Positions 14,119-51,740 are shown, counted from the stretch's first letter. The stretch: 64,000 nt of DNA from Chitinophagales bacterium (GCA_028278085.1 JANQFB010000055.1:3806-67805); one strand, 5' to 3'. Made by a program: numbers and translations. The notes: a model not told the origin generated them from the sequence alone.

Positions 14119-15042
14119 ATGAAAAAAACGATCTTCATCATAATATTCCCGTTTTTGCTGCTTACGGCACAAGCCCAGCAGGAAGTACTTTTCAGTCAGT
14201 ATATGTTTAACGGCCTGGCCCTGAACCCAGCCTATGCCGGTAGTAATGAAGTGCTCAGCTTTACGGCCCTGTACAGAAAACAATGGGTGGGCCTCGATGG
14301 AGCCCCGGAAACCCAAACGGTCAGTTTTCATACACCCCTGAGGAATGAAAAAATAGGTCTAGGCTTACAGATCTTCCATGATAAGATCGGGATCTTTAAC
14401 CGGAATGGCGCTTACGGCAGCTATGCCTTTCACCTGCCGACCACCAATGGCGCTTTTTCCATCGGATTACAAGGAGGGATAACCTCTTACCAGGCCAGGT
14501 GGGCCGACGAAGTCACCATTTCCCCGGGCGACAACGCATTTGCCAACAACTCCGAGACCATGATCGCCCCTAATGTCGGTTTTGGCCTGTATTACCGGAC
14601 CCAAAAGTATTATGCCGGCGTTTCCATTCCCTACTTATTGGAAAACAACCTGGATTTTAATAACAATGTAACCAATGCCTCCAAAAGGTCACATCAATTC
14701 AGGCATTACTTTTTATCGGGAGGATATGTTATTGCGCTGAAACCCGATATTCAACTGAAACCCGAGATCCTGTTGAAATACGTGCAAAACGCACCCACGC
14801 AACTGGATATCAACCTCACGGCGCTATTTTATAACTCCCTTTGGGTCGGCGGAGGATTCCGGACAGACGGTTCGGTGGTATTGCTCCTGGAGTATCAATT
14901 GAACAAACAATTCAGCTTTGGATATTCATTCGATCTGTTGAGCAATCCGCTCAGAAAGGCCAATAGTGGTTCTCATGAAATTATGGTTCGATACGAATTT
15001 AGTTTTGATAAAAGCAATCTGGCACATCCGCGGTACTTTTAA
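14119..15042 (+). CDS. T9SS membrane protein, PorP/SprF family
   Basis: N-terminal 'AQQEVLFSQYMFNGLALNPAYAGS' and 'YRKQWVGLDGAP' are the PorP/SprF signature. It starts 6 nt after the type-B cargo gene. Confidence 0.85.
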   Translation: MKKTIFIIIFPFLLLTAQAQQEVLFSQYMFNGLALNPAYAGSNEVLSFTALYRKQWVGLDGAPETQTVSFHTPLRNEKIGLGLQIFHDKIGIFNRNGAYGSYAFHLPTTNGAFSIGLQGGITSYQARWADEVTISPGDNAFANNSETMIAPNVGFGLYYRTQKYYAGVSIPYLLENNLDFNNNVTNASKRSHQFRHYFLSGGYVIALKPDIQLKPEILLKYVQNAPTQLDINLTALFYNSLWVGGGFRTDGSVVLLLEYQLNKQFSFGYSFDLLSNPLRKANSGSHEIMVRYEFSFDKSNLAHPRYF

Positions 15043-15064: not shown

Positions 15065-18000
15065 ATGAAGGGAATCTCTACACTTTTACAGGGTCTTAAA
15101 TATTGTCTGGCTTTCCTGCTCTTCATTTCCTTGGCAGGCAAGGTTTTCGGTCAGGATAAAGATATTGCCCTTGGCGAAGCTTATTATGAAAATGTATCCT
15201 ACGCGAAAGCCATCGAACATTTTCTAATGGCCCTGGAAAAGGAAGAAAACCAGGAGGATGCCGAACTGATGGCTAAGCTGGCAGACTGTTACCGGTTAAC
15301 CGGCAATACCAAAGAGGCAGCCTCGTGGTATTTACAATCCGTCGATAGCGGGAAGGTCGCCGCATCGACCTCGCTACACCTGGGACAGGTATTGATGATG
15401 GAAGGGCAATATGAGGAAGCTAAAAAGTGGTTCCTGGAATATGCCAAACAAAGGCCCGGAGATCCCAGGGGTAAGGTCCTGGCCAATTCCTGTTCGAATA
15501 TCGGTCAGTACAAATCCGCTCAACGTAATTACAGCGTCAGCTCTTTGCCTTTATCCTCGGATCTGACGGCCTTTTCCCCGGCCTTTTATGGGGAAGACCT
15601 TGTTTTTGTTACGGAACGGCAGGATTTTGGCATCCGACGGAACAATACCTGGACCGGCGGCGGTATGTTGGATCTCTATGTGATCCGGAAAAATAATAAT
15701 GGGGATTGGCAAGAGCCGAAACTGTTCTCCGCTCGCCTGAAATCCTCGTTAAACGAAGGCCCGGCTACTTTCACCAGGGATGGTAAAACCATATATTTCA
15801 CCCGCAATCATAAAAGCAGCAGCGGCGAAAAGGTTAAAAAACTACAGATCTTAAGCGCCACCCGCAAGGGCGGAGGATGGAGTCAGCCCAAACCCTTGTC
15901 GATCAACAGCAAAGGCTATAATGTCGCTCACCCCAGCATTTCGGCCGACGGACAATTTTTGTATTTTATGTCGGACATGCCGGGCAGCAAAGGCGGATCG
16001 GACATATACGTTAGCCGGAAAAGCGGCGATTCGTGGGGAGCCCCGCAAAATCTAGGGTCGGAGATCAACACCAAAGGTAATGAGGCCTTCCCCTTTATTC
16101 ACCCTGACGGCACCCTGTATTTTTCATCGGATGCCCATGAAGGTATGGGCGGACTGGACATTCACATCGCCAGGAATAATAACGGTAAATGGACGCGCAT
16201 TAAGAATATGGGCTTCCCTGTAAATTCGGCAAAAGACGATTTTGGCATAATTGTTGACAAAGATTATCACAACGGTTATTTCTCTTCTAACAGATCCGAT
16301 GGTACGGATAACCTGTATAAGATCAGGATCCTCCAGAAAGACGATATCATGGCCATTCAGCCTGAAGGACTGGCCATCAGCGGAAAGCTGACCGACGACT
16401 CGGAAAGCGCGGTGGAAGGTATCAACGTTACGCTATTCAACGAGGATAAAACGGCCATTTCTTCCTTAAAAACATTAAAAGACGGTACATTCCGGTTTGA
16501 AATGCTTACCCCTGATCAGCAATATATGATCAAGGTAGATGAACCGGAAGACACGGAATTATATATCGAAATGGATCTATCCGACAACAGCGGTACGTTA
16601 GAAAGCATCGAAAGGACAAAGGTGAAAGACCATTATTTCAAGTTTGAAAAACTGCCGGCTATGCAGGAAATGATCCGGTTGCTGGGCGTGGAAGATACGG
16701 AATTGGAGATCGACGAGGGCAAACTGGGTTTTATCGGGAAAGTAACCGACCAGGATCAACAACCCCAGACCGGTGTTTCGATGATCTTGTATGATGAGAA
16801 CAGGAAAGTGATCAGCCGGACAAAAACCGACGACAAAGGCATCTTCAGATTCGAAAATCTGCCGGCCGACGTCAATTATATGTTCCAGATCGATGACGAA
16901 AACGATGCCGGATTCCTGGTCGACATGTTTATGCAAGATGATAAAGGAGGGCTGCTTAAAATGATCACCAGGAGGAGCAAAGACGGTATGTTCCTTTTCG
17001 AGAACCTGCCGGCCTCATCGGCCTTGCTTTCCATGATGGAAGTGGAAGATACGGAATTGAGCGTCGATGATGGAGAGCTGGCCATTTTTGGTAAGATCGC
17101 CGATGGATCACAGCTACCCCAGGGAGGGGTTTCCTTGTCTTTATATGATGAGAACAGAAAAGTGATCCAGCGAACCCAAACGGATGATAAAGGCATTTTC
17201 AAATTTGAAAACCTGCCTTCCGACAAAAACTACCGGATCAAGATCGATGAAGCCGACGATTCGGGTTTCCTCGTGGATATGTTTATGCGCGATGATCAGG
17301 GTAATACTATAAAACTGATCAAGAGCAAGGATGCCGAGGGTATGTTCGCCTTCGAAAACCTTCCCGCAGCACTTACCGATATGGCTTTAATGGCGGTAGA
17401 AGATACCGATCTGTTTATTGACGAAGGAAATATCGGCCTCAAAGGAATGGTAACCGATCCGTCTAAAAATCCGCAGGAAGGGGTGAACATGGTCTTACTC
17501 GACGAGAACAGGAAAGTGATCAGCCGCACAAAAACCAACGATAAAGGGCAATTCATTTTTGAAAACCTGCCTTCCGATATGAATTATATGATCATGGTCG
17601 ATGAAGAAAATGATGCCGGCTTCCTGGTCGATATGTTCATGGAAGATGATAAAGGCAATACCACCCGCCTGCGGAAGCGCAAGAATGCCGATGGCCTCTA
17701 TATCTTTGAAAACCTCCCGGCAGCCTCCGCTATGTTGAGCATGCTGGGCGTTGAAGACACGGAATTAAAAGCCGATGAAGGTAATTTTGGCATCTTCGGA
17801 AAAGTCGGCGATGAAAATAGCCCCGTCAGGGAAGGTGTAAAAATGGCATTGACCGATGAAAACGGTAATATTATTGCCCGGACAACCACCGATAGCAAAG
17901 GGATCTTTAAATTCGAAAACCTGCCTTCCGACAAAAACTACCGGATCAAGATCGACGAAGCCGATGACCAAGGCTTCCTGGTCGATATGTTTATGGCCGA

Positions 18001-20317
18001 CGACCAGGGGCATACCCGGAAATTGATCACCCAAAGAGGGGCCGATGGATTATTTATGTTTGAAAATCTCCCGGTCCAGCAAGCCGGTATTGCCTTGCTC
18101 GATATTTCAGATACGGAATTGGCCATTGACGAAGGAAATATGGGCATATTCGGTAAGCTTGGCGGTGAAGATCCGGATGCCGGGAAAAATGTCAAAATGA
18201 GCCTCTTGGATGAAATGGGGAATGTTGTCGCTACCACAACCACCGACGAAGACGGGGTTTTTACTTTCGAAAACTTACCCACTAATAAAAATTTCAGGAT
18301 CAGGATAGATGATGCCACGGACGAGGGCTTACTGGTAGATATGTTCATGCAGGATGATAAAGGGAATGCCCGCCGGTTGGCGACGCAAAGAGATGCCGGA
18401 GGATTATACATTTTCGAAAGTCTTCCGTCGGAAAAGTCTTTGCTGGAAATGATGGGGGTTAGGGATACCGATCTCGATATCGAAGAAGGAAATATCGGGC
18501 TCATGGGTAATATCAGCAACCTCGAAAAGCTGCCGAGGGAAGGGATCAGGATCATGCTGCTGGATGAAAACGATAATGTGGTGGCCACGGCCATGACCGA
18601 TGAAAAGGGGAATTTTACCTTTGAAAACCTGCCCGGCGACCTTAATTACCGGATCAAGGTCGATGATGATTCCGATGCCGCATTATTAGCGGAGATCCTG
18701 ATGGCAGATGACAAGGGAAATATCAAACGGCTCGTTAAGCGACAAACAGAAACCGGGCTTTTCGAATTCGAGAATCTGCCGGCCACAAAATCCATGTTGA
18801 GTTTCCTGGGTGTGGAAGATACCGAGCTTAGCATCGATGAAGGGCAAATGGGCTTGATCGGGAAGCTGGAGAATTCGGACAACCTGCCGCGCGAAGGGGT
18901 TAAAATGATGTTGCTGGATGAAAATGACAATGTTATCGGAACAGCCATGACCGATGATCAGGGGATCTTTACATTCGAGAACCTGCCGGCGGATCTCAAT
19001 TACCGGATCAAGATCGATGACGACAGTGATGAAGGAGCCCTGGTCGAAATGTTCATGGAAGATGACCGCGGCAATGTTAAACGTTTGATCAAAAAAGAAG
19101 CAGACCAGGGGCTGTTTGAATTTGAAAACCTGCCGGCCAGCAAGAGCATGATAGGCCTGTTGGGAGTTTCCGATACCGAACTCGATATCGATGCCGGCCA
19201 AATGGGCTTGATCGGAAAGATCGAAGATCCGCAAAACCTGCCGCGGGAAGGTGTCAAAATGATGCTGTTGGACGAAAATGATAATGTTGTCGGAACAGCC
19301 ATGACCGATGACCAGGGGATCTTCAAATTCGAGAACCTTCCCGTCGATCCGAATTACCGAATAAAGATCGCCGATGAGGCGGACCAGGGGCTGTTAATGG
19401 AATTGTTTATGGAAGACGACCAGGGTAAAACCGCCTATGTGGAACAATCCAAAACCGGTAACGGTACCTTCGCCCTGGAAAACCTGCCGACCTCCGGAGG
19501 CGGCCTGAGCGAAGCCGAATTAACGGATACCAAGCTTCAAATGCCGGAAGATGGCGACATGTACGTTTTCGACAATATTTATTATCCGTACGAAAGCAAG
19601 GTTTTTCATGATGATGCGATCAAAACCCTGCAAAAGGTGGTGAAGGTGATGAAAGAAAACCCGGAGTTGCGAATAGAGGTGGCCTCTCATACCGATAGTA
19701 AGGGTGAGGCGGCTTATAACTTAAAACTGTCGAAAAAAAGAACGGAAAGCGTGGCACGCTATCTTGTTCAAAATGGCATTAAACGTAAGCGGGTGATCAG
19801 CAAATGGTTCGGAGAAACCCAGTTGGCCGAAAAAGATATGACTGCCGATGGCAAAGAGATCCTCGAAGCCATGCAAAAAAACAGGCGCACCACCCTGAAA
19901 GCCTTCGACTTCCATAGCGCCTTTTCGGCGGAAGGCGGTAAAAGCGTGGTAAAAAGCGGAAAGCAATGGAAATTTGAGAATATTTATTACGAATTTGAAA
20001 GCAACAGATTTACCCAGTCCGCTAAAGACCAGCTCAGGGATATTGCCGCTACCCTTAAAAACAATCCGGAATTGCGGTTGGAAGTGGCTTCGCATACCGA
20101 CAGCAAAGGACCGGAAGATTATAATCTGAATTTGTCCAAAAAAAGGTCGGAAAATGTTGTCCGCTACCTGGTCAGGCAGGGAGTGAAAAAAAACAGGGTC
20201 GTAACGAAATGGTATGGCGAAAGCCAGCTATTGATAAAAGATATAACCGATAGTGGCCTGGAGATACCGGAAGCTATGAAAAAAAACAGGCGGACGAGCT
20301 TTACAATTTTGCGATAA
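15065..20317 (+). CDS. Giant PorE-like protein: TPR + TolB-like beta-propeller + 9 CRD-like repeats + 2 OmpA C-terminal domains
   Basis: TPR-like helices lie at aa 30-150. PD40-like motifs include 'GPATFTRDGKTIYFTRN', 'ISADGQFLYFMSDMPGSKGGSDIYVS' and 'HPDGTLYFSSDAHEGMGGLDIHIA'. Nine 118-aa units follow. Two OmpA-like domains are present ('ASHTDSKG...LSKKR...NRRT' occurs twice). Confidence 0.85.
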   Translation: MKGISTLLQGLKYCLAFLLFISLAGKVFGQDKDIALGEAYYENVSYAKAIEHFLMALEKEENQEDAELMAKLADCYRLTGNTKEAASWYLQSVDSGKVAASTSLHLGQVLMMEGQYEEAKKWFLEYAKQRPGDPRGKVLANSCSNIGQYKSAQRNYSVSSLPLSSDLTAFSPAFYGEDLVFVTERQDFGIRRNNTWTGGGMLDLYVIRKNNNGDWQEPKLFSARLKSSLNEGPATFTRDGKTIYFTRNHKSSSGEKVKKLQILSATRKGGGWSQPKPLSINSKGYNVAHPSISADGQFLYFMSDMPGSKGGSDIYVSRKSGDSWGAPQNLGSEINTKGNEAFPFIHPDGTLYFSSDAHEGMGGLDIHIARNNNGKWTRIKNMGFPVNSAKDDFGIIVDKDYHNGYFSSNRSDGTDNLYKIRILQKDDIMAIQPEGLAISGKLTDDSESAVEGINVTLFNEDKTAISSLKTLKDGTFRFEMLTPDQQYMIKVDEPEDTELYIEMDLSDNSGTLESIERTKVKDHYFKFEKLPAMQEMIRLLGVEDTELEIDEGKLGFIGKVTDQDQQPQTGVSMILYDENRKVISRTKTDDKGIFRFENLPADVNYMFQIDDENDAGFLVDMFMQDDKGGLLKMITRRSKDGMFLFENLPASSALLSMMEVEDTELSVDDGELAIFGKIADGSQLPQGGVSLSLYDENRKVIQRTQTDDKGIFKFENLPSDKNYRIKIDEADDSGFLVDMFMRDDQGNTIKLIKSKDAEGMFAFENLPAALTDMALMAVEDTDLFIDEGNIGLKGMVTDPSKNPQEGVNMVLLDENRKVISRTKTNDKGQFIFENLPSDMNYMIMVDEENDAGFLVDMFMEDDKGNTTRLRKRKNADGLYIFENLPAASAMLSMLGVEDTELKADEGNFGIFGKVGDENSPVREGVKMALTDENGNIIARTTTDSKGIFKFENLPSDKNYRIKIDEADDQGFLVDMFMADDQGHTRKLITQRGADGLFMFENLPVQQAGIALLDISDTELAIDEGNMGIFGKLGGEDPDAGKNVKMSLLDEMGNVVATTTTDEDGVFTFENLPTNKNFRIRIDDATDEGLLVDMFMQDDKGNARRLATQRDAGGLYIFESLPSEKSLLEMMGVRDTDLDIEEGNIGLMGNISNLEKLPREGIRIMLLDENDNVVATAMTDEKGNFTFENLPGDLNYRIKVDDDSDAALLAEILMADDKGNIKRLVKRQTETGLFEFENLPATKSMLSFLGVEDTELSIDEGQMGLIGKLENSDNLPREGVKMMLLDENDNVIGTAMTDDQGIFTFENLPADLNYRIKIDDDSDEGALVEMFMEDDRGNVKRLIKKEADQGLFEFENLPASKSMIGLLGVSDTELDIDAGQMGLIGKIEDPQNLPREGVKMMLLDENDNVVGTAMTDDQGIFKFENLPVDPNYRIKIADEADQGLLMELFMEDDQGKTAYVEQSKTGNGTFALENLPTSGGGLSEAELTDTKLQMPEDGDMYVFDNIYYPYESKVFHDDAIKTLQKVVKVMKENPELRIEVASHTDSKGEAAYNLKLSKKRTESVARYLVQNGIKRKRVISKWFGETQLAEKDMTADGKEILEAMQKNRRTTLKAFDFHSAFSAEGGKSVVKSGKQWKFENIYYEFESNRFTQSAKDQLRDIAATLKNNPELRLEVASHTDSKGPEDYNLNLSKKRSENVVRYLVRQGVKKNRVVTKWYGESQLLIKDITDSGLEIPEAMKKNRRTSFTILR
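16382..19567 (+). repeat. Nine tandem coding repeats, each exactly 354 nt (118 aa)
   Basis: Units start with Gly codons at 16382, 16736, 17090, 17444, 17798, 18152, 18506, 18860 and 19214, all exactly 354 nt apart. Each unit carries two 'FxFENLP' motifs. Confidence 0.9.
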
Positions 20318-20968: not shown

Positions 20969-20982
20969 AACTGAAAGTTATC

Positions 20983-21870: not shown

Positions 21871-21924
21871 GGTTTTTTCATAAAATATCCTCTGGCCAGT
21901 AGAAAAGAAGGTTTCATATCAAGG

Positions 21925-39008: not shown

Positions 39009-39044
39009 TAAAAACATGTAAATTGCGATCATAAATAATATTTG

Positions 39045-40616: not shown

Positions 40617-42578
40617 ATGGCTGGCTTATATCGTCCGATTATTGTATGCCTGGTATATTGGGTATTGATGGGTGCCCAGCCTGCTTTTGGTACGCATGTG
40701 ATTGGTGGAGAGTTGTATTACGAATGTGTCGACCCTAACAATCATTTTTATCGCATTACCTTATTGCTTTACCGGGATTGTACGAATTCCTCCAATGCGG
40801 AGTTCGACGACCCTGCATACCTGGGTATTTATGATGATGCCGGGAACCTGATCAACGGGCCCATCGGTACGGATCTCCCGCTGATCAGCAGGGATACCTT
40901 ACCCAATGAAACCTACCAACTTTGCCTCTTTTCTCCCCCCAATGTTTGTGTGGAAGAAGGCTTATACGAACAAACCATCCAGATGCCTCCGCTTCCCGGG
41001 GGCGGTTCTTATACCCTGGTGTTTCAAAGATGTTGCCGGAACGATGATATTGTAAACATCCCCAATCCCCTGGGTACCGGCGCCAGTTGGGAGATCCAGG
41101 TACCGGACCCCAGTGTGGCCGATTGTAACAGCTCTGCTTCTTATAACATTTTCCCACCGACGATCATTTGCCTGAATGAAGAGATCGTTTTCGACCATTC
41201 CGCAAGCGATCCCGACGGTGACTCCCTGGCCTATAAGCTTTGCAACCCTCACCTGAGCAGCCTTGTAGTGGTCGACGGTAGCGTCCCCTCCCCGGATCCG
41301 AAACCGAATTTTGGAAATGTTCCCTATAATTCGGGATTCTCCTTTCAAAATCCCCTGGGAGGAACCGGACCTACGCAATTGCAGATCGACCCGGTAACAG
41401 GCGCATTATCCGGCAGGCCTCAATTCCCGGGGCAGTTTGTGGTCGGTATTTGTGTGGAAGAATGGCGGGACGGCCAGTTGCTGACTACCAATCGAAGGGA
41501 TTTTCAGTTTAACGTGGCCCTTTGTGATACGGACCTGACCGCGGTCTTCGACTGGTCGATGGATACCTGCTCGAATACCCTGACCTTTACCAATGAAAGT
41601 ACAAGGGGCACCACCTACTTCTGGGATTTTGGCGTGGATACTTCCACCATGGATACCAGTTCGGCGGAACATACCTCCTACCAGTTCAAGGAAATCGGTA
41701 CGTATAATGTTCTGTTCATCGTAAATCCTGCCACCAAATGCGTGGATACCATGCAGCAAACCATTGTCATTTCCGATCCACCGCTAATTGTGGATTTTAC
41801 CTTTAATGATGTCTGCCTGGGAGATACCACCTTTTTTGCCGATAGTTCTTCCAGCGGCAGCGGCAGCGGTAGTATCAATTCCTGGTATTGGGAATATGGT
41901 GACGGTACCACGCATAACGGCCCCAACCCGCCTTCCCATGTTTACGAAGATACGGGCTCCTATCCCCTGTTGCTGGCCATTACCACCGACAGGGCCTGCA
42001 CCGATACCGCCAGGGGGGGAGGTTTCCTGGTGAATGTATTCCCGATCCCGACCGTCGACGCCGGATCCGATCAGACCATTATGATCGGCGACAGCATCTT
42101 GCTGATGCCCAGCTCCGGCTTTGCATCCTACTTGTGGGATCCTGCGGAAAGCCTGAGTGATTCCTCCCTGGAATCTCCGTATGCCAGTCCTACGGTTACG
42201 ACCAGCTACAACCTGAATGCCCTCGACCATAACAATTGCCCGGCATCCGACCAGGTATCCATTGAAGTGCTGGTGCCTGCTACCATCGATGTACCGACGG
42301 CATTTACGCCCAATAACGATGCCCTGAACGATATCTTTTTTGTGTATGACCTGCTCGGTTTCCAGGGAGCAGGCTTGTCAGAATTCGATCTGAAGATCTT
42401 TAACCGCTGGGGAGAGCTTGTTTTTGAATCCGATAACATCAATACGGGTTGGGACGGTAATCATATTCGAAACGGAAAGCCTTCCGATATCGGTGTTTAT
42501 GTGTGGATGGTTAGCGGTACCAAGGTAACCGGAGAGAAAATTGATCCGATTTACGGCAATGTTTCCCTGATCCGGTGA
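40617..42578 (+). CDS. Secreted Cys-rich passenger-domain + 2 PKD protein with T9SS type-B sorting domain (gliding motility-associated C-terminal domain)
   Basis: The N-terminal domain is the same as in 39045..40466 ('GTHVIGGELYYECVD...LLLYRDC...QRCCRNDDIVNIPNPLGTG'). PKD motifs are 'YFWDFG' and 'WYWEYGDG'. The tail is 'PTAFTPNNDALNDIFFV...IFNRWGELVFES...GWDG...GVYVWMV'. Confidence 0.85.
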   Translation: MAGLYRPIIVCLVYWVLMGAQPAFGTHVIGGELYYECVDPNNHFYRITLLLYRDCTNSSNAEFDDPAYLGIYDDAGNLINGPIGTDLPLISRDTLPNETYQLCLFSPPNVCVEEGLYEQTIQMPPLPGGGSYTLVFQRCCRNDDIVNIPNPLGTGASWEIQVPDPSVADCNSSASYNIFPPTIICLNEEIVFDHSASDPDGDSLAYKLCNPHLSSLVVVDGSVPSPDPKPNFGNVPYNSGFSFQNPLGGTGPTQLQIDPVTGALSGRPQFPGQFVVGICVEEWRDGQLLTTNRRDFQFNVALCDTDLTAVFDWSMDTCSNTLTFTNESTRGTTYFWDFGVDTSTMDTSSAEHTSYQFKEIGTYNVLFIVNPATKCVDTMQQTIVISDPPLIVDFTFNDVCLGDTTFFADSSSSGSGSGSINSWYWEYGDGTTHNGPNPPSHVYEDTGSYPLLLAITTDRACTDTARGGGFLVNVFPIPTVDAGSDQTIMIGDSILLMPSSGFASYLWDPAESLSDSSLESPYASPTVTTSYNLNALDHNNCPASDQVSIEVLVPATIDVPTAFTPNNDALNDIFFVYDLLGFQGAGLSEFDLKIFNRWGELVFESDNINTGWDGNHIRNGKPSDIGVYVWMVSGTKVTGEKIDPIYGNVSLIR

Positions 42579-42655
42579 CAACAGTTGATAACGACATAAT
42601 TTATTTATATTAGCAATAATTTCAACAACTTCAGTTATTACCATATCAAAAAGTC

Positions 42656-43723
42656 ATGAAACTATATCTACCCTTAAAACGACCCATAATCCTATTTACC
42701 CTGGTTATGGCGGGACTTATCCTTATTAGTCCGGAAATGAAGGCGCAGGACATTCATTTTTCGCAGTTTTATAATTCCCCGCTAACGCTCAATCCGGCCA
42801 TGACCGGTAATTTCGACGGTACCTACCGGTTAGCCGGCAACTACCGTAGACAATGGGCAAGTATACATCCGAACACGCCCTTTGAAACCTTTGCCGCATC
42901 CGTGGATATGGAGATCCCCAATAACCTGATCAAATCCGGTAAAATAGCCTGGGGCTTACAATTTTTCAATGATCAATCCGGTTTGAGCAATTTGACCAAT
43001 CAATCGATATTCGGTTCGTTGGCCTATCACCATGCCATCAATAAAGATCATGTGGTAAGCATTGGTTTCCAGGGTGGGCTGGTCAATAAACGGATCGATT
43101 ATTCCCGCTTAACTTTCAACAACCAATTCGATGGTCAGATCTTTAGCAGCGACCTTCCTCATGGCGAAAGCGGAATGAACGAATCCATGTCTTATATGGA
43201 TTTTCAGGCCGGACTGGGATGGACATCCGTGCTCAATGAAAAACTTTCGGCATTCGGTGGCATAGCCATGTTCCACCTCACGCAACCCAATGAAAGCTTC
43301 CTGAATCAAACCGACAATCCCCTGGAATCGCGGCTTGCCGTACACGCAGGCACCCAATATAAAGTGAACGAAAAAGTCGGTGTGGTGCCCAGTGTCATTT
43401 TCATGAGTCAGCGTAAAGCCCAGGAGATCAACCTTGGCGCCTCTGCTACCTATGAGTTGCAGGAAGGAAAACTTTCGCAGGCTGTCCTTTATTTCGGATC
43501 CTGGTTCCGGATGTCTGCGGGTAATTCTATTATCGATGCCGCCATACCTACCACCGGCTTGCAATACAAAAACTGGAAGCTCGGCCTGAGTTATGACGTC
43601 AATATTTCTTCCCTTAACGAGGCATCCACCTATAGAGGAGGGCCTGAGATCTCGCTAATATATATCGGCAACCTGAGCAAACCTTTGCCGATCAACCCGG
43701 TTTTACCCTGCATCAGGTATTAA
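42656..43723 (+). CDS. T9SS membrane protein, PorP/SprF family
   Basis: Contains 'AQDIHFSQFYNSPLTLNPAMTGNFDGTYRLAGNYRRQW'. Confidence 0.85.
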   Translation: MKLYLPLKRPIILFTLVMAGLILISPEMKAQDIHFSQFYNSPLTLNPAMTGNFDGTYRLAGNYRRQWASIHPNTPFETFAASVDMEIPNNLIKSGKIAWGLQFFNDQSGLSNLTNQSIFGSLAYHHAINKDHVVSIGFQGGLVNKRIDYSRLTFNNQFDGQIFSSDLPHGESGMNESMSYMDFQAGLGWTSVLNEKLSAFGGIAMFHLTQPNESFLNQTDNPLESRLAVHAGTQYKVNEKVGVVPSVIFMSQRKAQEINLGASATYELQEGKLSQAVLYFGSWFRMSAGNSIIDAAIPTTGLQYKNWKLGLSYDVNISSLNEASTYRGGPEISLIYIGNLSKPLPINPVLPCIRY

Positions 43724-43816
43724 AACCCACCACCACAAAAAGCCCATGCGAAATGATGAAGGCCACCGATCTAAATCCTGAAAAATTTAAGAACCTGTCC
43801 CAAAACTAAAATTGGA

Positions 43817-45880
43817 ATGAGATTACTATTGTGCAGTTGTTTGCTGATGATACTCTTCGGGTGTAAATCCCAGAAAGGAGCGGGAGATAAGGAATATTCA
43901 CCCAAGCAAAACTTGAAATTCGCAGATCAGTTGTTCAATATGGGCAGCTACTATAATGCCATCGACTACTATGCCAAAGTCCATGAAAGTACGCCCGACA
44001 ACCCGCATGTTGCCTGGCAATTGGCGGAATCCTATTTTTTATCCCGGGATTATGTAAAGGCAGAAGAATGGTATAAAAAAACCATGGACCAGGCCGCGGC
44101 AAAATATCCGCTGGTCGGCTTCAAGTATGCCCAGGCCCAAAAGATGAACGGCAAATATGCCGAAGCCAAAAAATCCTTTACCAACTTTATCAAAACCTAT
44201 AAGCAGTCGGATGCCCAGAATTACAAGAAGATCGTAAGGGTCGAAAAAGAAGGCTGCGATTATGCCCTGGAAGCTCAAAAAAGCCCGGCTAATATCAAAA
44301 TGATCCACATGGACGAAAACATCAATGCGGCTTATACCGAATTCGCTCCGATGCCCATGGGTGATGATAAATTCTTCTATGCTACCCTGTATTCCGATTC
44401 CGTGATCGAGCTCGACGGAAAAAAGAATGTCAAACATTTCAGCAGGATCTTCCAGCTCGACCGGAATGGCGGTGAATATACCAACAAACAAAAATTGCCG
44501 CCGGCTATCAATGATAATAACTATCATACCGGCAACGGTACTTTTTCCTTTAACGGCAGCAAATATTATTTCACCAAATGCCAGCAGACCGAAACCGGTA
44601 AGGTAAATTGTGAGATCTATGTAACCAATTACAAAAAGGGTGATTGGGGTACCCCGGAAAAACTGGAGTTCAACATCAATATGGAGGGCTACACCAGTAC
44701 ACACCCAACGATCGGGCCCTATAAAAGAGGCGGGCAGGTGCTTTATTTCGTGTCTGACCGGCCGGGAGGTGTCGGAGGAATGGATATATGGTACTCGGTT
44801 ATTTCCCGCAACGGTAAAAAATACGGCGAGCCGCAAAATGCAGGCCGGAAGATCAATTCCCTGAGGGATGATATCACGCCTTATTTCGATAACAAATCCA
44901 AAACCTTTTATTTCAGCTCTAACGGCCGTGTCGGTATGGGCGGCTATGATATTTTCAGAACCGAAGGGATGATGAAAAAATGGACCAAGCCGGAAAATAT
45001 GGGTCCTCCTTTGAACACAAGGGTCGACGATATGTATTTCGTACCGGAGAAAAGCGGGCAGGGTGGTTACCTGGTATCCAACCGTCCGGGTTCCATTGCC
45101 TTGAAAAGCCCGACCTGCTGCGACGACATTTACCGGTTTGAATACCGCAATGTGATCAACGTTGCCGTTCAGGGTTATGTGTATGACGAAAGCGATCCCT
45201 CCAAAACGCCCATCAACGACGCCACCGTTTCGCTATATATCGCCAATTCGGAAGATGAAAGCGGAGAGCCCCTGGCGATCGCCTCGGAAATTACCAAAGA
45301 CGGCAACATGTATTTTTTCGACCTGAATCCTAACAAAGAATACAAATTAAGCGCCGCGAAAAAAGGATATTTCTCCGGTAAAAGCCTGTTCACCGATTAT
45401 GAAGGTGTCAGTACCATGGGCATTACACGCTCGGATACCTTCCGTGTCGATCTTTTCCTGAAAAAAATGGAATTGAATGTTGCTTACCGGCTTCAAAACA
45501 TCTATTATGATTTCGATAAAGCCACGCTGCGGCCGGAATCCATCAAGACCTTGGATTCCCTGTTGATCTTACTCCGTGAGCATCCTGCCATAAAGATCGA
45601 ATTGGGCTCCCATACCGATAGTAAAGGCAGTAATGAATACAACATCCAGCTTTCTCAAAAACGGGCGGAAAGTGTGGTGAAGTTCCTGATCAAAAACAAG
45701 ATATCACCGGAACGCCTGGTTCCCAAAGGTTATGGTGAAGAAGTGGCCATTGCCCCGAATTCCAATCCCGATGGATCGGACAACCCTGAAGGCAGACAAT
45801 TGAACCGAAGAACGGAATTTAAGATCATCGGAGAACTGGAAAATGTCAAATACATGGAACCCGGAGAGGAAGAATATTAA
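43817..45880 (+). CDS. PorE-like lipoprotein: TPR + TolB-like propeller + one CRD + one OmpA_C domain
   Basis: Lipobox 'ILFGC'. TPR-like helices. PD40-like runs include 'GGQVLYFVSDRPGGVGGMDIWYS' and 'KTFYFSSNGRVGMGGYDIFRT'. The CRD-like region is 'VQGYVYDES...ATVSLY'. The OmpA domain is 'LGSHTDSKGSNEYNIQLSQKRAESV...NRRTEF'. Confidence 0.8.
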   Translation: MRLLLCSCLLMILFGCKSQKGAGDKEYSPKQNLKFADQLFNMGSYYNAIDYYAKVHESTPDNPHVAWQLAESYFLSRDYVKAEEWYKKTMDQAAAKYPLVGFKYAQAQKMNGKYAEAKKSFTNFIKTYKQSDAQNYKKIVRVEKEGCDYALEAQKSPANIKMIHMDENINAAYTEFAPMPMGDDKFFYATLYSDSVIELDGKKNVKHFSRIFQLDRNGGEYTNKQKLPPAINDNNYHTGNGTFSFNGSKYYFTKCQQTETGKVNCEIYVTNYKKGDWGTPEKLEFNINMEGYTSTHPTIGPYKRGGQVLYFVSDRPGGVGGMDIWYSVISRNGKKYGEPQNAGRKINSLRDDITPYFDNKSKTFYFSSNGRVGMGGYDIFRTEGMMKKWTKPENMGPPLNTRVDDMYFVPEKSGQGGYLVSNRPGSIALKSPTCCDDIYRFEYRNVINVAVQGYVYDESDPSKTPINDATVSLYIANSEDESGEPLAIASEITKDGNMYFFDLNPNKEYKLSAAKKGYFSGKSLFTDYEGVSTMGITRSDTFRVDLFLKKMELNVAYRLQNIYYDFDKATLRPESIKTLDSLLILLREHPAIKIELGSHTDSKGSNEYNIQLSQKRAESVVKFLIKNKISPERLVPKGYGEEVAIAPNSNPDGSDNPEGRQLNRRTEFKIIGELENVKYMEPGEEEY

Positions 45881-45937
45881 ATCATCATAAATACCAGCAA
45901 AAATCTGACTACGATCACCCCATATAAATCATTAGCT

Positions 45938-48900
45938 ATGAAAAAAAATTATTACTATATCCTGATAACAGCCCTGTTCATGTTGTGTGGACAGTTTACT
46001 ATAGCACAGCAGGCCACCCTGATATTCGTGCAGGATTTTGATATTCCCCAGAATTCGGGAGCCTTCGATGTCAATTCCCCTTTAGGTATCAATAATTACG
46101 GGTCCAATGAATGGGTGATCAATTCAGAGTATGACGGACAACCGATCTATATGGATACCCCGCCACAGGATACGATTTTCGATACCATCGGAAACATTGC
46201 TTTCCCCGGCGGTAACTATATGCACATCAATGATAATACCACCTTTCCCCAGGGCGCCACGTATAACGCGGCCAATAATTCGGATCAATGGACAGTGATG
46301 AACAATGGCGGGGTTTGTACCTATGGTTACGGAGAGGTGCTGATCACTTTCTGGTACCTGAGCATCGGTTCGCCCTATGGTTTTGGTGAAGTTTATTACA
46401 GCACCGATGGAGGGGCCAACTGGAACCTGACCGTTAACCGGGATGGTGAAACGAAATATAAGGATATGGACCGGTGGAAATACACGGAAATATCGATGCC
46501 TCAATTTGTAGGGCATGGAAATTTTCTGATCGCTTTCCGATGGATCAACACCAATGCGGATACCTCCGGCGGCGGCCAAATACCCTTTGCTGTCGATGAT
46601 GTTATGCTGGTAGGGATCAACGGCGATACGACCACGCCTGACCAGCCCTCACCGGCTATTATTGCCACCAGCATGTCGCCGACACCGGTGTGCCATGAAG
46701 ATGTGAACAACCCTGACATAACCTTTGCCTTTACGGTTACCGAACCGCTTTGTGAAGGAGATTATGTTATTGAATTATCCGATTCGAGCTGTAATTGGGA
46801 CAATTCCTTTGTATTCGGGATCCTGTCGAATTTTGTCGCCACGCCCGGCAACTGGGTGGCCACCGGAACCGGATTCCTGGTACCTTCTTCCATACCTATC
46901 GGACCATGCTATTGTTACCGGATCAGCAGGATCAGCAATCCGACCTTTGTCGGTACACCAAGCACCATTTGCTGGGAGATCATTGATTGCCCGGATTCAA
47001 CAGCCATTGCGGATACTCCTGCGGTGTTGAAAGACCCGATCATGAACGGATCGGGGGCCGGAACAGGTACTACCTTTCCTACCATATGTATGAACAGTGT
47101 GATCGACGTTCCGTTTTATTCGTACGGCGCCTATAATCCTGGCAATGCCTATTGGCTGGAGCTATCGGATTCCAACGGCAACTTCCCGGCCAACCCGCCG
47201 GATACCATCGGCGGACCATCCGGACCCAATACGCAAACCTATGATCCGGCCATTTATCCCCCACCTATATCACCAGGCTCACAATCCGGCAAAATACCGG
47301 ATGATGTGCCGGAAGGATGTAATTATTATATCCGGGTCAATTCAACGGATCCGGTTATAGAAGGAGCGATATGGGGACCCTTCTGTATCGTTAATTGCGA
47401 CGTGGAAACCAACCAGGCACAGGATTTCAGTGTTTGTGTCACCGATACGGACAGTGTATGTATAGAAATACCTTACGACATCAATAAATTCGATCCCAAT
47501 ATCGTCTATGATCCGAATAACGAGTTCCTGTTCCAGGTGCTGGACAATCAAACCATGGCAGTGATCAACGAAGGGGTATTGGGGCTCGAGCTCAATACGG
47601 CCAGTGGATTAATGGAATTATGTTTCCCCCCATTCCAGCAATACCTGGCGCTGCCCATGGAACCCAAGATGTATTATGTCCGGGTGATCTCGTCGAACGG
47701 TTCGGATACAACCGATCAATGGGGCAGCCTGGTGCGGATGACGGTTACCGGCATCTCCGGCTGGCCGATCACACTTACCGGCGACCGGGATACGATCATT
47801 TGTCCGCCAAACCCGAGGAACCCGATCTGCCTGACGGTGAGCTCCAACTGGTTGTCGCCGACATCGCAATACCAGTTCGAGTTCAGTACGGGCGGTTCCT
47901 TTACCTGGCGTCCACCACCGGGAAATGCGCCACAAATACCGCCGCATCCTCCATTACCGACCATATGCTTTAATACGGATAATTTCCCCGAAGGCTGGAC
48001 CAGTGTGACCGTTCAGGAAACGGCGGGGCCCGACTGTACCGGGCCGGTTTCCAATCCTGTGCAGTTCTATATCTGGAATGCCGCCGTTACCCGTGACTTT
48101 GACGGCGACTTCGATGTGTGCCAGGGCGATACCGTGACCTATACCGCAACCTTCTTTGAAGAATCGAACGGCTGGTATCACTTCGAACAAAACGGGGGAA
48201 AAGTCGTTAACGACTATGTTCCCAATACCCAGATACGGGTGGTTTGGGATTCGATCGGTTTCGGATTCTTTGTATCGCTGACCATTATCGGCGACCAGTG
48301 TGCCGGTGACCAGTATATCCAGAAAACGGTGAATGTCCTCCCACGGACCAAAGCCGATATTTCCGGTGATACCTCGGTTTGCCATGGGGAAACCGTCAGT
48401 CTGCGGGCCAGGAACGCCACCACCCAGTTCAACAATGAATATAACTGGTTTTACCTGGATGATACCACCACTACTTTAGCTGATTCCGTTGACGGGGATA
48501 CGGTTTCCATATTGACCCTTACCCCGGATACGACAACAGACTTGTTGCTGGAAGTGATCTATTCGCCGCCCGACGGTTGTTTCGATTACGATACGTTCCA
48601 GCTTAAAGTTCATAAGGCAGATGTCGACGCCGACAGTATCGAACTATGCGAGGGTGATACCATACCGCTAGTTGGTTCCGTAAACGGAGCCGTCAGCAGT
48701 GTGCATTGGGAACCGCCGACCGACCTGCTGTACCCGGATTCCTTACAGGCCCAAACCTATACCGTCGACCCGATCACCTACAAGCTGATCGCGGAATTCG
48801 GTACCGGGTGTTCGGATACGGCAGAGATCGCCATCGATATCATCCCGACATCCTTTGATATCAGTGAAGATGATACCATCGCACCGGGACAGCAATCCTT

Positions 48901-49348
48901 CCTGGTAGCGAACGGCGGGATCGAATATTTATGGGAGCCCGGATCGAGTCTCGACTTTACCGATATTTCCAATCCAACTGCTACACCTGACTCCACCACG
49001 GAATACCAGGTAAAGATCGTGGATGCAAACGGCTGTAAACGGACACTGGACGTAACGGTCTTTGTGCTGGATCCGAATATTGTGGTACCCACAGCCTTTT
49101 CACCGAATGGAGATAAAACCAATGACATCTTCTATCCCATTTATATGGCCATCGAAGAACTTTATGAATTCAAGGTCTTCAATCGATGGGGTGAATTAGT
49201 ATTCGAAACCAATGTGATCGGTCAGGGCTGGGATGGAAAGTACAAGGGTGTACCACAGGAGATTGGAACGTATATGTTCATTATTAAAGCCAAAACCTTA
49301 CTGGATGAAGAAAGAGCCTTCGAAGGTAATGTGACCCTGATCCGGTAA
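45938..49348 (+). CDS. Large Cys-rich surface protein with T9SS type-B sorting domain
   Basis: Signal peptide, 1136 aa. The C-terminus is 'PTAFSPNGDKTNDIFYP...VFNRWGELVFET...GWDGKYKG...GTYMFII'. Confidence 0.8.
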   Translation: MKKNYYYILITALFMLCGQFTIAQQATLIFVQDFDIPQNSGAFDVNSPLGINNYGSNEWVINSEYDGQPIYMDTPPQDTIFDTIGNIAFPGGNYMHINDNTTFPQGATYNAANNSDQWTVMNNGGVCTYGYGEVLITFWYLSIGSPYGFGEVYYSTDGGANWNLTVNRDGETKYKDMDRWKYTEISMPQFVGHGNFLIAFRWINTNADTSGGGQIPFAVDDVMLVGINGDTTTPDQPSPAIIATSMSPTPVCHEDVNNPDITFAFTVTEPLCEGDYVIELSDSSCNWDNSFVFGILSNFVATPGNWVATGTGFLVPSSIPIGPCYCYRISRISNPTFVGTPSTICWEIIDCPDSTAIADTPAVLKDPIMNGSGAGTGTTFPTICMNSVIDVPFYSYGAYNPGNAYWLELSDSNGNFPANPPDTIGGPSGPNTQTYDPAIYPPPISPGSQSGKIPDDVPEGCNYYIRVNSTDPVIEGAIWGPFCIVNCDVETNQAQDFSVCVTDTDSVCIEIPYDINKFDPNIVYDPNNEFLFQVLDNQTMAVINEGVLGLELNTASGLMELCFPPFQQYLALPMEPKMYYVRVISSNGSDTTDQWGSLVRMTVTGISGWPITLTGDRDTIICPPNPRNPICLTVSSNWLSPTSQYQFEFSTGGSFTWRPPPGNAPQIPPHPPLPTICFNTDNFPEGWTSVTVQETAGPDCTGPVSNPVQFYIWNAAVTRDFDGDFDVCQGDTVTYTATFFEESNGWYHFEQNGGKVVNDYVPNTQIRVVWDSIGFGFFVSLTIIGDQCAGDQYIQKTVNVLPRTKADISGDTSVCHGETVSLRARNATTQFNNEYNWFYLDDTTTTLADSVDGDTVSILTLTPDTTTDLLLEVIYSPPDGCFDYDTFQLKVHKADVDADSIELCEGDTIPLVGSVNGAVSSVHWEPPTDLLYPDSLQAQTYTVDPITYKLIAEFGTGCSDTAEIAIDIIPTSFDISEDDTIAPGQQSFLVANGGIEYLWEPGSSLDFTDISNPTATPDSTTEYQVKIVDANGCKRTLDVTVFVLDPNIVVPTAFSPNGDKTNDIFYPIYMAIEELYEFKVFNRWGELVFETNVIGQGWDGKYKGVPQEIGTYMFIIKAKTLLDEERAFEGNVTLIR

Positions 49349-49379
49349 TAAGGCTTTTGGCGGCCTGTTATATATTTCA

Positions 49380-50432
49380 ATGTACAAACTTGAAGGTCTA
49401 GCTTTGTGTGGGAAGGTATGTTCAAGCGTGTTGCTGGCCCTGCTGGTTGGTTTGCTGATATCCGTTAAACCTGCACAAGCGCAGGATATACACTTTTCAC
49501 AATTCTATTTTTCCCCACTAACGGTAAATCCGGCACAAACCGGTTTCTTTAACGGCCGCTACCGGTTTGCCGCCAATTACCGGGATCAATGGGGATTTGT
49601 CCCCTTCCTCAAAACCTATGCCGCCAGCTTCGATGCCAAGCTGGTCAATAATCTATTCAGCTATGGTAATATCCTCGCGCTCGGGGTGTATATGTATGGC
49701 GATAATCCCGAACCGGGCCATATTGGCAGAACCGGCTTTTTTGGGTCAGCCGCCTATCATCAAACCCTGGGGGACAAAAACCACTATATTGCCGTGGGCG
49801 TACAGGGAGGGCTGCACCAGATAGGATTTGACCCCAATCTGCTGCGGTTCGGCGACCAGATCGTAAACGGCTCAACATCCTCCAATGAAGCGTTTAACAG
49901 CACCAATATTCAATTCACCGACATCGGGGCTGGAGCTTTATGGAATATCGTTCCTAATGAACGGGCCAATATTTATGCCGGCTTTTCTCTTTTTCACCTT
50001 AACAGTCCGGTCGTTAATTTTGCCAGCGGCCCGGCGAATACCCTGTCGATGAGAACAGTTATCCATGGTGGCGCCGCTATCAAATTAAATGACCAATTCG
50101 ATCTTCTGCCGGCCATCATGCTCATGAAACAAAGATCTGCCAGTGAACTAATAATGGGTGCGGCTTTACGTTACAACCTGGAAGATAATGCCGGTATAAG
50201 ATTTGGCAGTTGGTTCAGGAATTACAGAAATGCCGATGCTCTTGTTATTATGACTGCCCTCGACTATCAACGATTTATTTTTGGCCTCAGCTATGATTTC
50301 AATATCTCCTCCTTTAGCCGAGTCAGCAACGCGAGGGGTGGCTACGAAATATCGCTGATCTATACCGGCGGTGTGATCGTCGAATCCAAACGGAACCGTA
50401 ACAAAGGCCGGATCCCCTGTCCTATTTTATAA
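49380..50432 (+). CDS. T9SS membrane protein, PorP/SprF family
   Basis: Contains 'AQDIHFSQFYFSPLTVNPAQTGFFNGRYRFAANYRDQW'. It starts 31 nt after the cargo gene. Confidence 0.85.
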   Translation: MYKLEGLALCGKVCSSVLLALLVGLLISVKPAQAQDIHFSQFYFSPLTVNPAQTGFFNGRYRFAANYRDQWGFVPFLKTYAASFDAKLVNNLFSYGNILALGVYMYGDNPEPGHIGRTGFFGSAAYHQTLGDKNHYIAVGVQGGLHQIGFDPNLLRFGDQIVNGSTSSNEAFNSTNIQFTDIGAGALWNIVPNERANIYAGFSLFHLNSPVVNFASGPANTLSMRTVIHGGAAIKLNDQFDLLPAIMLMKQRSASELIMGAALRYNLEDNAGIRFGSWFRNYRNADALVIMTALDYQRFIFGLSYDFNISSFSRVSNARGGYEISLIYTGGVIVESKRNRNKGRIPCPIL

Positions 50433-51695: not shown

Positions 51696-51740
51696 GATCC
51701 GGAAGATTCTTCTGATCAATATAATTCGATCTTCCGGATC
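51696..51740 (-). terminator. Hairpin spanning the stop codon of the PKD/GEVED gene
   Basis: A perfect 12-bp stem, GATCCGGAAGAT (51696-51707) with ATCTTCCGGATC (51729-51740), and a 21-nt loop. No clear U-tract. Confidence 0.3.

Follow-up and report, generated by a model that had tools for sequence, protein, structure and literature searches.

Results

The stretch of Chitinophagales DNA analyzed here (the window, 64 kb) carries eight ORFs arranged as three same-strand cassettes, all on the + strand and at the coordinates first listed in the initial annotation (Table 1). Cassettes 1 and 2 have the order cargo, PorP-like, PorE-like on one strand with short intergenic gaps (6 and 22 nt in cassette 1, 77 and 93 nt in cassette 2). 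Cassette 3 starts 57 nt 3' of PorE-like 2 and consists of a cargo and a PorP-like gene 31 nt apart, so that all three PorP-like genes lie directly 3' of a type B cargo gene on the same strand. No PorE-like gene follows PorP/SprF-like 3 in the window; a 388-nt gap is found instead. Our own HMMs for the three families, applied to every ORF of 70 aa or longer in the window, recovered exactly these eight genes and no further members. The genes of a cassette may be co-transcribed; scans that are uninformative for this phylum detected neither convincing terminators nor −7 boxes of the Bacteroidota type in the intra-cassette gaps.

Table 1. Genes and subgenic features of the three cassettes (window coordinates).
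Feature	Coordinates	Strand	Description
Cargo 1, 679 aa	12073..14112	+	Putative signal peptide, 5-6 tandem Big_9/cadherin-like (tandem-95) repeats, type B CTD 595-679
PorP/SprF-like 1, 307 aa	14119..15042	+	'P1' subtype; TIGR03519 286.5 bits, PF11751 277 bits; outer-membrane beta-barrel
PorE-like 1, 1750 aa	15065..20317	+	SPI-type signal without lipobox, TPR, beta-propeller (~20-490), repeat array, two OmpA_C
Repeat array of PorE-like 1	16694..19525	+	Eight ungapped 118-aa units, two G.F.FENLP motifs each, CarboxypepD_reg/SdrD_B-like
Two tandem OmpA_C-like domains of PorE-like 1	19568..20302	+	Residues ~1502-1610 and ~1641-1746; HTDSKG...YNL.LSKKR in both
Cargo 2, 653 aa	40617..42578	+	Putative signal peptide, two PKD domains, type B CTD
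PorP/SprF-like 2, 355 aa	42656..43723	+	'P2/3' subtype; TIGR03519 210.6 bits
PorE-like 2, 687 aa	43817..45880	+	Lipobox LFGC, TPR 29-153, beta-propeller 160-443, CRD-like beta-sandwich 449-559, OmpA_C 573-673
Cargo 3, 1136 aa	45938..49348	+	Putative signal peptide, Reelin-subrepeat-B-like and Ig_7 regions, type B CTD
PorP/SprF-like 3, 350 aa	49380..50432	+	'P2/3' subtype; TIGR03519 162.9 bits

Profile searches bear out the earlier family assignments, and the CTD and PorP N-terminal motifs quoted with them are found in the translations. All three cargos carry a type B CTD, with TIGR04131 (T9SS type B sorting domain) scores of 64.3, 41.1, and 53.7 bits for cargos 1, 2, and 3, above the curated cut-off of 35 bits. 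These matches run to the C terminus or very close to it, and our own CTD HMM spans residues 586–679, 547–653, and 1039–1136, respectively. PF13585 (CHU_C) also matches all three (56.7 bits in cargo 2), and each translation, read by eye, has a hydrophobic N terminus. Cargo 1 additionally matches NF012211 (235.7 bits) and PF17963 and appears adhesin-like; cargo 2 matches PF18911. Cargos 2 and 3 are paralogues (33% identity over 288 aa).

The PorP-like proteins match TIGR03519 (PorP/SprF; 292 positions, cut-off 90.55 bits) nearly end to end. PorP1 is 33–44% identical to 80 homologues from other species, and PorP2 and PorP3 are paralogues of each other (39% identity).

The third-position genes match PF00691 (OmpA) and had initially been called PorE-like. 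They are indeed full-length homologues of the PorE profile NF052230 (T9SS_PorE; E=5e-142 for PorE-like 1 and 4e-103 for PorE-like 2), but their scores of 474.4 and 345.8 bits fall under the 600-bit NCBIfam cut-off, and we therefore file both as PorE-like paralogues and not as PorE proper. That their function equals that of PorE is an assumption. NF053607 (CHU_0125_OmpA) is the best NCBIfam match for both, again under its cut-off (481.5 and 381.2 bits versus 620 bits). The two proteins are 29% identical to each other.

The AF2 model of PorE-like 2 (pLDDT 89.7, pTM 0.80) has the four-domain PorE architecture of TPR, beta-propeller, CRD-like, and OmpA_C domains. The best PDB sequence match of this protein is the C-terminal domain of Porphyromonas gingivalis PorE (6TOP, E=2e-26), to which its OmpA domain is 40–45% identical; among Foldseek matches of OmpA_C, 6TOP ranks 3–4, after Capnocytophaga gingivalis OmpA (5WTL/5WTP). 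Within the motif TD601...N609..LS..R616, Asp601, Asn609, and Arg616 are invariant across 62 homologues, and the predicted peptidoglycan-binding D/N/R residues are kept both here and in the two OmpA domains of PorE-like 1. A lipobox-like signal was seen in 10/118 and 6/119 homologues, in agreement with the report that lipoproteins are a minority among the PorE homologues of gliding bacteria (PMC12773672).

The least ordinary part of the locus is the 1750-aa PorE-like 1. Its N terminus is of the 'E1' type, and its profile matches include nine to PF13620, nine to PF17210, and two to PF00691. Compared with the PorE family, the ends are the same, but the CRD position is expanded to eight repeats and the OmpA domain is duplicated. 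The repeat units are acidic (20% D+E), with a motif spacing of exactly 118 aa and a mean identity of 52% at the amino acid and 60% at the nucleotide level; no DNA-level tandem repeat was found in the array. In the AF2 model, the repeat beta domains have pLDDT values of 80–95 and are joined by low-confidence linkers, and the second OmpA domain is modeled with pLDDT >95, the first poorly. Extended PorE-like proteins of about 1000–1800 aa are widespread (>100 seen), and no description of such a class was found in the literature searched.

Gene order was compared across species for the 80 closest PorP1 relatives, one locus each from different species. In this sample, which is not an unbiased set of PorP paralogues, a PorE-like gene lies directly 3' of the PorP1-like gene in 69/76 evaluable loci (median gap 21 nt), a cargo lies directly 5' in 69/74, and full cargo/PorP/PorE-like triads are present in 62 of the 71 evaluable loci of other species. 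Viewed from the other side, all 85 PorE-like genes in these loci are directly 3' of a PorP gene (85/85); none of the eight other PorP genes in the locus flanks was found to have a PorE-like neighbor (0/7). The arrangement is far beyond chance, with dozens of other species showing this gene order. The subtypes also co-segregate, with 72 P1/E1 pairs, 9 P2-3/E2 pairs, and no mixed pairs. Nearest relatives are mostly Bacteroidota MAGs and metagenome contigs, named matches (Chitinophagales and Chitinophagaceae) start only from about 45% identity down, and the triad order is kept across orders of Bacteroidota.

Cassettes 2 and 3 together form a five-gene module of two cargo–PorP pairs and one PorE-like gene. 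The content of this module is kept in three other lineages (L001, L002, and L006), where the genes occur in two arrangements, with full-length orthologues of cargo 2 (39–41% identity) and cargo 3 (37–39%) as well as orthologues of PorP2 (40–45%) and PorP3 (40–50%). Across the four genomes, the PorE-like gene always comes directly after the PorP2 orthologue and never after that of PorP3.

Discussion

Type B T9SS cargos include adhesins that Bacteroidota use for sticking and gliding. Current thinking is that such a cargo is fixed or moves depending on a PorE-like tie between its PorP-like partner and the cell wall. We consider it probable that the cassettes described here are T9SS "static adhesin" modules of the Flavobacterium johnsoniae kind, anchored to the wall through a PorE-like protein, with cassettes 2 and 3 sharing one. 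Each cargo would be exported by Sec, its type B CTD would be recognized by the T9SS translocon, and it would then be passed to the cognate PorP/SprF-like barrel encoded next to it and remain bound at the cell surface. The periplasmic face of the barrel would bind the PorE-like protein that follows through its TPR/beta-propeller region, and the OmpA_C domain or domains of the latter would bind peptidoglycan, such that the adhesin is fixed to the wall and not moved by the gliding machinery. P. gingivalis has a demonstrated PorE–PorP–PG1035 complex, and in F. johnsoniae, porE-like genes adjoin porP-like genes (PMC9143113). The WD40 domain of PorE is implicated in PorP binding, its OmpA domain is essential, and its CRD is dispensable (PMC12773672). 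In F. johnsoniae, Fjoh_3952 behaves as static, and Fjoh_3950 is the proposed anchor (PMC12618676).

The initial annotation favored cargo-specific PorP–PorE-like complexes over a single shared PorE, and the adjacency counts (69/76 and 85/85), the co-diversification of subtypes, and the invariant residues all point the same way. It had also suggested that cassette 3 may draw on the PorE-like gene located just 5' of it; retention of the module content despite differing gene order fits such borrowing, and the conserved linkage in the three other lineages argues for it. Most likely, PorE-like 2, a predicted lipoprotein and the only PorE-like protein of the module, is shared by the two paralogous cargo–PorP pairs. 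Pair 3 could equally be unanchored, because the PorE-like gene is always beside the PorP2 orthologue and none is beside that of PorP3.

One or both PorE-like genes might instead encode the general PorE, a core T9SS component on which, as in P. gingivalis, the secretion of many cargos depends, and would then happen to adjoin a PorP gene without being private anchors. The full-length homology to the PorE profile is what such a role would produce, as is the four-domain architecture that the model shares with PorE, and PorE-like 2 is predicted to be a lipoprotein, which P. gingivalis PorE also is. Moreover, no single PorE orthologue is singled out in gliding Bacteroidota, with "Many" in Cytophaga hutchinsonii (PMC11611037) and five homologues in F. 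johnsoniae (PMC5445135). We nevertheless think this unlikely, as both scores are well under the PorE cut-off, the 64-kb window alone holds two divergent copies, and each has diversified in step with a PorP subtype of its own. A better PorE candidate may lie elsewhere in the genome. Somewhat less likely still is a CHU_0125-type role for the PorE-like proteins as Pal-like envelope-integrity factors, providing a general tether between outer membrane and peptidoglycan without cargo specificity, with PorP adjacency reflecting shared regulation. NF053607 is their best NCBIfam match, and deletion of CHU_0125 leads to outer-membrane integrity defects (PMC5891637, PMC11611037); however, the scores are below that family's cut-off, the invariable PorP adjacency and subtype co-segregation are difficult to account for unless the proteins are specific partners, and the PorE–PorP complex of P. 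gingivalis has been shown biochemically (PMC9143113). Local duplication and hitch-hiking without functional coupling, with cassette 3 a partial duplicate that has lost its anchor or never possessed one and does not use PorE-like 2, would account for the paralogy of the cargos and PorP proteins of cassettes 2 and 3 and for the PorE-like gene never following PorP3, but it is very improbable given that the duplication is ancient, with orthologues of each pair separable across four lineages, that the five genes are still linked despite rearrangement, and that triad order is kept across Bacteroidota orders.

In PorE-like 1, the spacer of eight 118-aa domains seems too long for a simple strut from outer membrane to wall, which counts against the static adhesin model. 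We can only tentatively propose that the extended PorE-like proteins are a functionally distinct class and more than paralogues, in which the dispensable CRD position of E1 has turned into a stalk or leash of variable copy number, and that barrels and anchors form at least two ancient cognate lineages (P1/E1 and P2-3/E2), co-diversified across Bacteroidota. If so, the stalk would set the reach or freedom of the wall-tethered adhesin–PorP complex relative to the peptidoglycan. More generally, the strict pairing of PorP and PorE-like subtypes offers a covariation data set for mapping their interface, and natural variants are potential test cases of anchoring, among them loci where one anchor goes with two cargo–PorP pairs, loci where one PorP goes with two cargos, and giant 8-repeat anchors.

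CHU_0125 of C. hutchinsonii ("Pal-like") has the same TPR/PD40/OmpA_C make-up as the PorE-like proteins, which are under its family cut-off; published work presents it as an envelope-integrity factor, with no linkage to PorP or cargo genes reported in the description consulted. SprB–SprF of F. johnsoniae, a mobile type B adhesin with its cognate PorP-like protein, resembles cassette 3 in that the pair is not followed by a PorE-like gene. Cassette 3 differs, however, in lying directly 3' of a PorE-like gene with which it is co-inherited, and cargo 3 is not SprB-like. With PorE (PG1058)–PorP–PG1035 of P. gingivalis, PorE-like 2 shares domain order, D/N/R residues, and lipobox. In P. gingivalis, however, each of the three is a single-copy gene unlinked to the others, and general gingipain secretion requires PorE, whereas here the genes are multi-copy, linked, and under the PorE profile cut-off.

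The closest likeness is to the Fjoh_3952–Fjoh_3951–Fjoh_3950 type of F. johnsoniae, in which these three families are likewise encoded on one strand in an identical order, the PorE-like gene being directly 3' of the PorP-like gene. F. johnsoniae has five or six such operons (PMC9143113, PMC12618676), and its PorE homologues are Fjoh_1647, 4540, 3950, 3973, and 3476 (PMC5445135). As at the present locus, there are several units per genome, adhesin-like cargos, and a proposed static wall-anchor role (PMC9143113, PMC12618676, PMC5445135). The private-anchor idea has already been stated for F. johnsoniae by Gorasia 2022 (PMC9143113) and Paillat 2025 (PMC12618676), the latter citing Kulkarni 2019. 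Layout and proposed role are thus already published, and our locus is a well-documented ordinary example that introduces no new principle. The comparison across species does show that, for one PorP lineage, the triad holds as a rule throughout the phylum and is not a peculiarity of F. johnsoniae. The locus differs from the F. johnsoniae units in its five-gene module of two cargo–PorP pairs and one PorE-like gene, in a 1750-aa PorE-like protein extended by eight repeats and another OmpA domain, and in belonging to a different Bacteroidota lineage.

Three cassettes and their genes

The eight genes that the initial annotation had grouped into three cassettes are present on the plus strand at exactly the coordinates it gave (see table), with gaps of 6 nt and then 22 nt within cassette 1 and of 77, 93, 57, and 31 nt along cassettes 2 and 3. 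[quoted passage not shown] Our own HMMs of the three families, run over all ORFs of the window, recovered these eight genes and nothing else. Calling the third-position genes PorE-like is also appropriate, with one restriction. Both match the PorE and CHU_0125 profiles over their full length, yet fall under both cut-offs, and thus they are PorE-like paralogues and not PorE by NCBI's rule. The cargos contain 5–6 tandem Big_9/cadherin-like repeats (cargo 1), two PKD domains (cargo 2), or Reelin-subrepeat-like and Ig_7 regions (cargo 3); all three look like adhesins.

Positions and profile scores of the features discussed (window coordinates unless a comparison locus, L, in another genome is named; cut-offs in brackets)
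Feature	Position	Strand	Profile match or remark
Four tandem paralogues, 716–737 aa	2167-11512	-	type A CTD, 21–25 bits (23)
Cargo 1	12073..14112	+	TIGR04131, 64.3 bits (35); PF13585 CHU_C
PorP1	14119..15042	+	TIGR03519, 286.5 bits (90.55)
PorE-like 1	15065..20317	+	NF052230 (T9SS_PorE), 474 bits (600); NF053607 (CHU_0125 family), 481 bits (620)
PorE-like 1 repeats	16694-19525	+	eight repeats
Bacteroidota -7 box	20339		TAATTTTG
YfiR-like DUF4154 periplasmic protein, TPR protein, HAMP-PAS-SpoIIE/PP2C phosphatase (SiaA-like)	20378-24162	+	YfiR-like: NF053591, 124.3 bits (125)
GH39-like type A CTD substrate	28187-30016	+	
SpoIIE/PP2C phosphatase	35693-37201	-	paralogue of 21925-24162, phmmer E=2.5e-75
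PKD type A CTD substrate	39042-40466	+	
Cargo 2	40617..42578	+	TIGR04131, 41.1 bits (35); PF13585 CHU_C
PorP2	42656..43723	+	TIGR03519, 210.6 bits (90.55)
PorE-like 2	43817..45880	+	NF052230, 346 bits (600); NF053607, 381 bits (620)
Cargo 3	45938..49348	+	TIGR04131, 53.7 bits (35); PF13585 CHU_C
PorP3	49380..50432	+	TIGR03519, 162.9 bits (90.55)
PKD/GEVED type A CTD substrate	51716-55291	-	
Ig-like type A CTD substrate, 958 aa	57623-60499	+	
T9SS_plug_1st gene	L001 5416-6705		PF17116
23S_rRNA_IVP gene	L002 8352-8798		PF05635
Short cargos	L010 8314-9078; L012 8291-9004; L013 8289-9047		237–254 aa
Reg_prop/Y_Y_Y/guanylate-cyclase gene	L013 and L014 13387-17187		Acidiluteibacter

PorE-like 2 (687 aa) has a lipobox, LFGC. 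Its AlphaFold2 model, built from a 62-sequence alignment, is confident (pLDDT 89.7, pTM 0.80) and predicts a TPR domain (residues 29–153), a β-propeller (160–443), a β-sandwich at the CRD position (449–559), and an OmpA_C domain (573–673), which is the four-domain PorE architecture of PMC5445135 and PMC12773672. Among all PDB chains, the top sequence match of the OmpA domain is 6TOP (E=2e-26), the C-terminal domain of Porphyromonas gingivalis PorE, with 40–45% identity (Foldseek). The peptidoglycan-binding D/N/R positions are invariant across 62 homologues.

Conservation of the triad and cognate subtypes

Homologues of PorE-like 2 at 41–53% identity were traced to their own contigs, and in each distinct context (comparison loci L001, L002, L003–5, L006–7, and L008–9) a PorP_SprF gene lies directly upstream, preceded by at least one CHU_C cargo. 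Searching a single genome for each GTDB species and scoring with our own HMMs gave 80 PorP1-like loci, spread over Flavobacteriales, Bacteroidales, Chitinophagales, Cytophagales, and Saprospiraceae. These represent the closest relatives of PorP1 and do not sample PorP paralogues at random. Of the 76 loci that could be evaluated, 69 have a PorE-like gene directly downstream, at a median gap of 21 nt; a type B CTD ORF is directly upstream at 69 of 74, and the full triad is found at 62 of 71. Other PorP genes in the flanks have a cargo upstream in seven of eight cases, whereas none of seven has a PorE-like neighbor, so there are two PorP classes, as in Flavobacterium johnsoniae. Over all loci the PorE-like gene comes after the PorP gene (85/85); two seeming exceptions were artefacts of ORF start choice.

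Adjacent pairs were classed by similarity to the window's paralogues. A PorP of the PorP1 subtype is paired with a PorE-like 1-type head in 72 cases and one of the PorP2/PorP3 subtype with a PorE-like 2-type head in nine; there are no mixed pairs. PorP served to choose one set and PorE to choose the other, so the subtype of the partner was in each case observed and not selected. Such strict pairing, though indirect evidence, is what would be expected if interacting pairs had duplicated and diverged together. The proposal that PorP and PorE-like proteins form cargo-specific complexes is sound, but as a hypothesis it had already been published. Within the window, PorP2 is a paralogue of PorP3 (39% identity over 330 aa), and cargos 2 and 3 are related as well (33% over the last 288 aa, rising to 43% in the final 100 aa); the identity of PorP1 to either PorP2 or PorP3 is only about 30%.

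Possible anchoring of cassette 3

Cassette 3 has no PorE-like gene after PorP3 and had been suggested to borrow the one upstream. The window's five-gene order, cargoA-PorPa-PorE-cargoB-PorPb, recurs in L001, where the PorE-like protein is 53% identical, and L002 and L006 have the same five orthologues ordered cargoB-PorPb-cargoA-PorPa-PorE. Orthology is indicated by cargos that align full-length at 37–41% and by PorP identities that are higher within than between types. That five genes with one PorE-like gene were kept together through rearrangement supports borrowing of PorE-like 2 by cassette 3. The PorE-like gene always adjoins the PorP2 orthologue, however, so cargo 3 and PorP3 may instead be unanchored. 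A further variant in L003 and L008 combines two cargos with a single PorP and a single PorE-like gene.

The module of L002 also includes a small 23S_rRNA_IVP gene between a cargo and its PorP. In L001 a T9SS_plug_1st gene lies directly upstream of the module, a position occupied in the window by a PKD type A CTD gene instead.

The giant PorE-like 1 protein

PorE-like 1 (1750 aa) carries an SPI-type signal, and its TPR/propeller head is the same as in PorE-like 2. Its eight acidic, ungapped 118-aa repeats each have two G.F.FENLP motifs, match CarboxypepD_reg and SdrD_B, and show mean identities of 52% (amino acid) and 60% (nucleotide). After them come two OmpA_C domains whose binding motifs are intact. 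Tandem Repeats Finder detected no DNA-level repeat in the gene and a BLAST self-comparison returned the self match only, so the repeats are defined by motif spacing. Over the repeat region (16000–20000) both skews are markedly positive, with GC at +0.08 to +0.15 and AT at +0.16 to +0.18, which reflects the acidic, purine-rich codon usage of this gene.

An AlphaFold2 model of the 571 C-terminal residues predicts the repeats with confidence as β domains (pLDDT 80–95) linked by low-confidence stretches of about 20 residues. A pTM of 0.32 and a badly modelled first OmpA domain do not support any statement on overall shape. Eight domains of such rigid appearance would far exceed the length needed for a strut from outer membrane to wall; they might serve as a leash, as a scaffold that lies laterally, or as an element that depends on Ca2+.

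More than 100 extended PorE-like proteins of about 960–1800 aa were found, the best being 29–33% identical to PorE-like 1, which is an extreme member of this class. All three contexts inspected (L010–14) consist of a short CHU_C protein, a PorP, and an extended PorE-like protein. The short cargos of L010, L012, and L013 comprise the type B CTD, a small N-terminal part, and little more; cargo 1 (679 aa) is far longer.

Operon signals and surroundings

Scans for σ70 promoters and intrinsic terminators gave counts not above those of shuffles, and a search for the Bacteroidota -7 box gave a single site, in the 60-nt gap after PorE-like 1; all are too weak to define operon ends. Directly after PorE-like 1 are genes for a YfiR-like protein, a TPR protein, and a phosphatase. 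In Pseudomonas, the OmpA-like lipoprotein YfiB controls YfiR, which makes a YfiR-like gene beside a peptidoglycan-binding OmpA protein suggestive. Related TPR and PP2C genes were found in L038 only, about 8 kb from the triad, and we therefore claim no signaling link to triads. A second case of a signaling protein directly after an extended PorE-like gene occurs in Acidiluteibacter, where the signaling gene overlaps the PorE-like stop codon. The phosphatase has a paralogue elsewhere in the window.

The window is ordinary chromosome, unusually dense in T9SS substrates, which are interspersed with housekeeping genes. Besides the type B cargos there are four T9SS type A CTD substrates and four tandem paralogues, 45–66% identical full-length, that have no Pfam domain and match the type A CTD weakly.

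Comparison with known systems

A PorE–PorP–PG1035 complex has been shown in P. gingivalis (Gorasia et al. 2022, PMC9143113). The same authors note that six F. johnsoniae porP-like genes adjoin porE-like genes, an adjacency for which they and Paillat et al. 2025 (PMC12618676) point to Kulkarni 2019 as primary source, and postulate that PorP–PorE-like complexes anchor non-mobile type B cargos to the wall. Paillat et al. describe five operons that code for a type B substrate together with its cognate shuttle and a PorE homologue, and propose that the Fjoh_3952/3951/3950 complex is static; Lasica et al. 2017 list the five PorE homologues. According to PMC12773672, the WD40 domain probably touches PorP, the OmpA domain is essential, the CRD is dispensable, and the multiple PorE homologues of gliding bacteria are mostly non-lipoprotein, with which our lipobox counts in PorE-like homologues agree.

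The reading of a private anchor for each cargo is thus already in the literature, and the window's cassettes add members to it. We regard their interest as modest, with PorE-like 1 and the lineages of cognate pairs as a moderately interesting side issue. What goes beyond the published descriptions that we found is the phylum-wide census with its strict subtype pairing, the conserved module of two cargo–PorP pairs with one anchor, and the extended PorE-like class.
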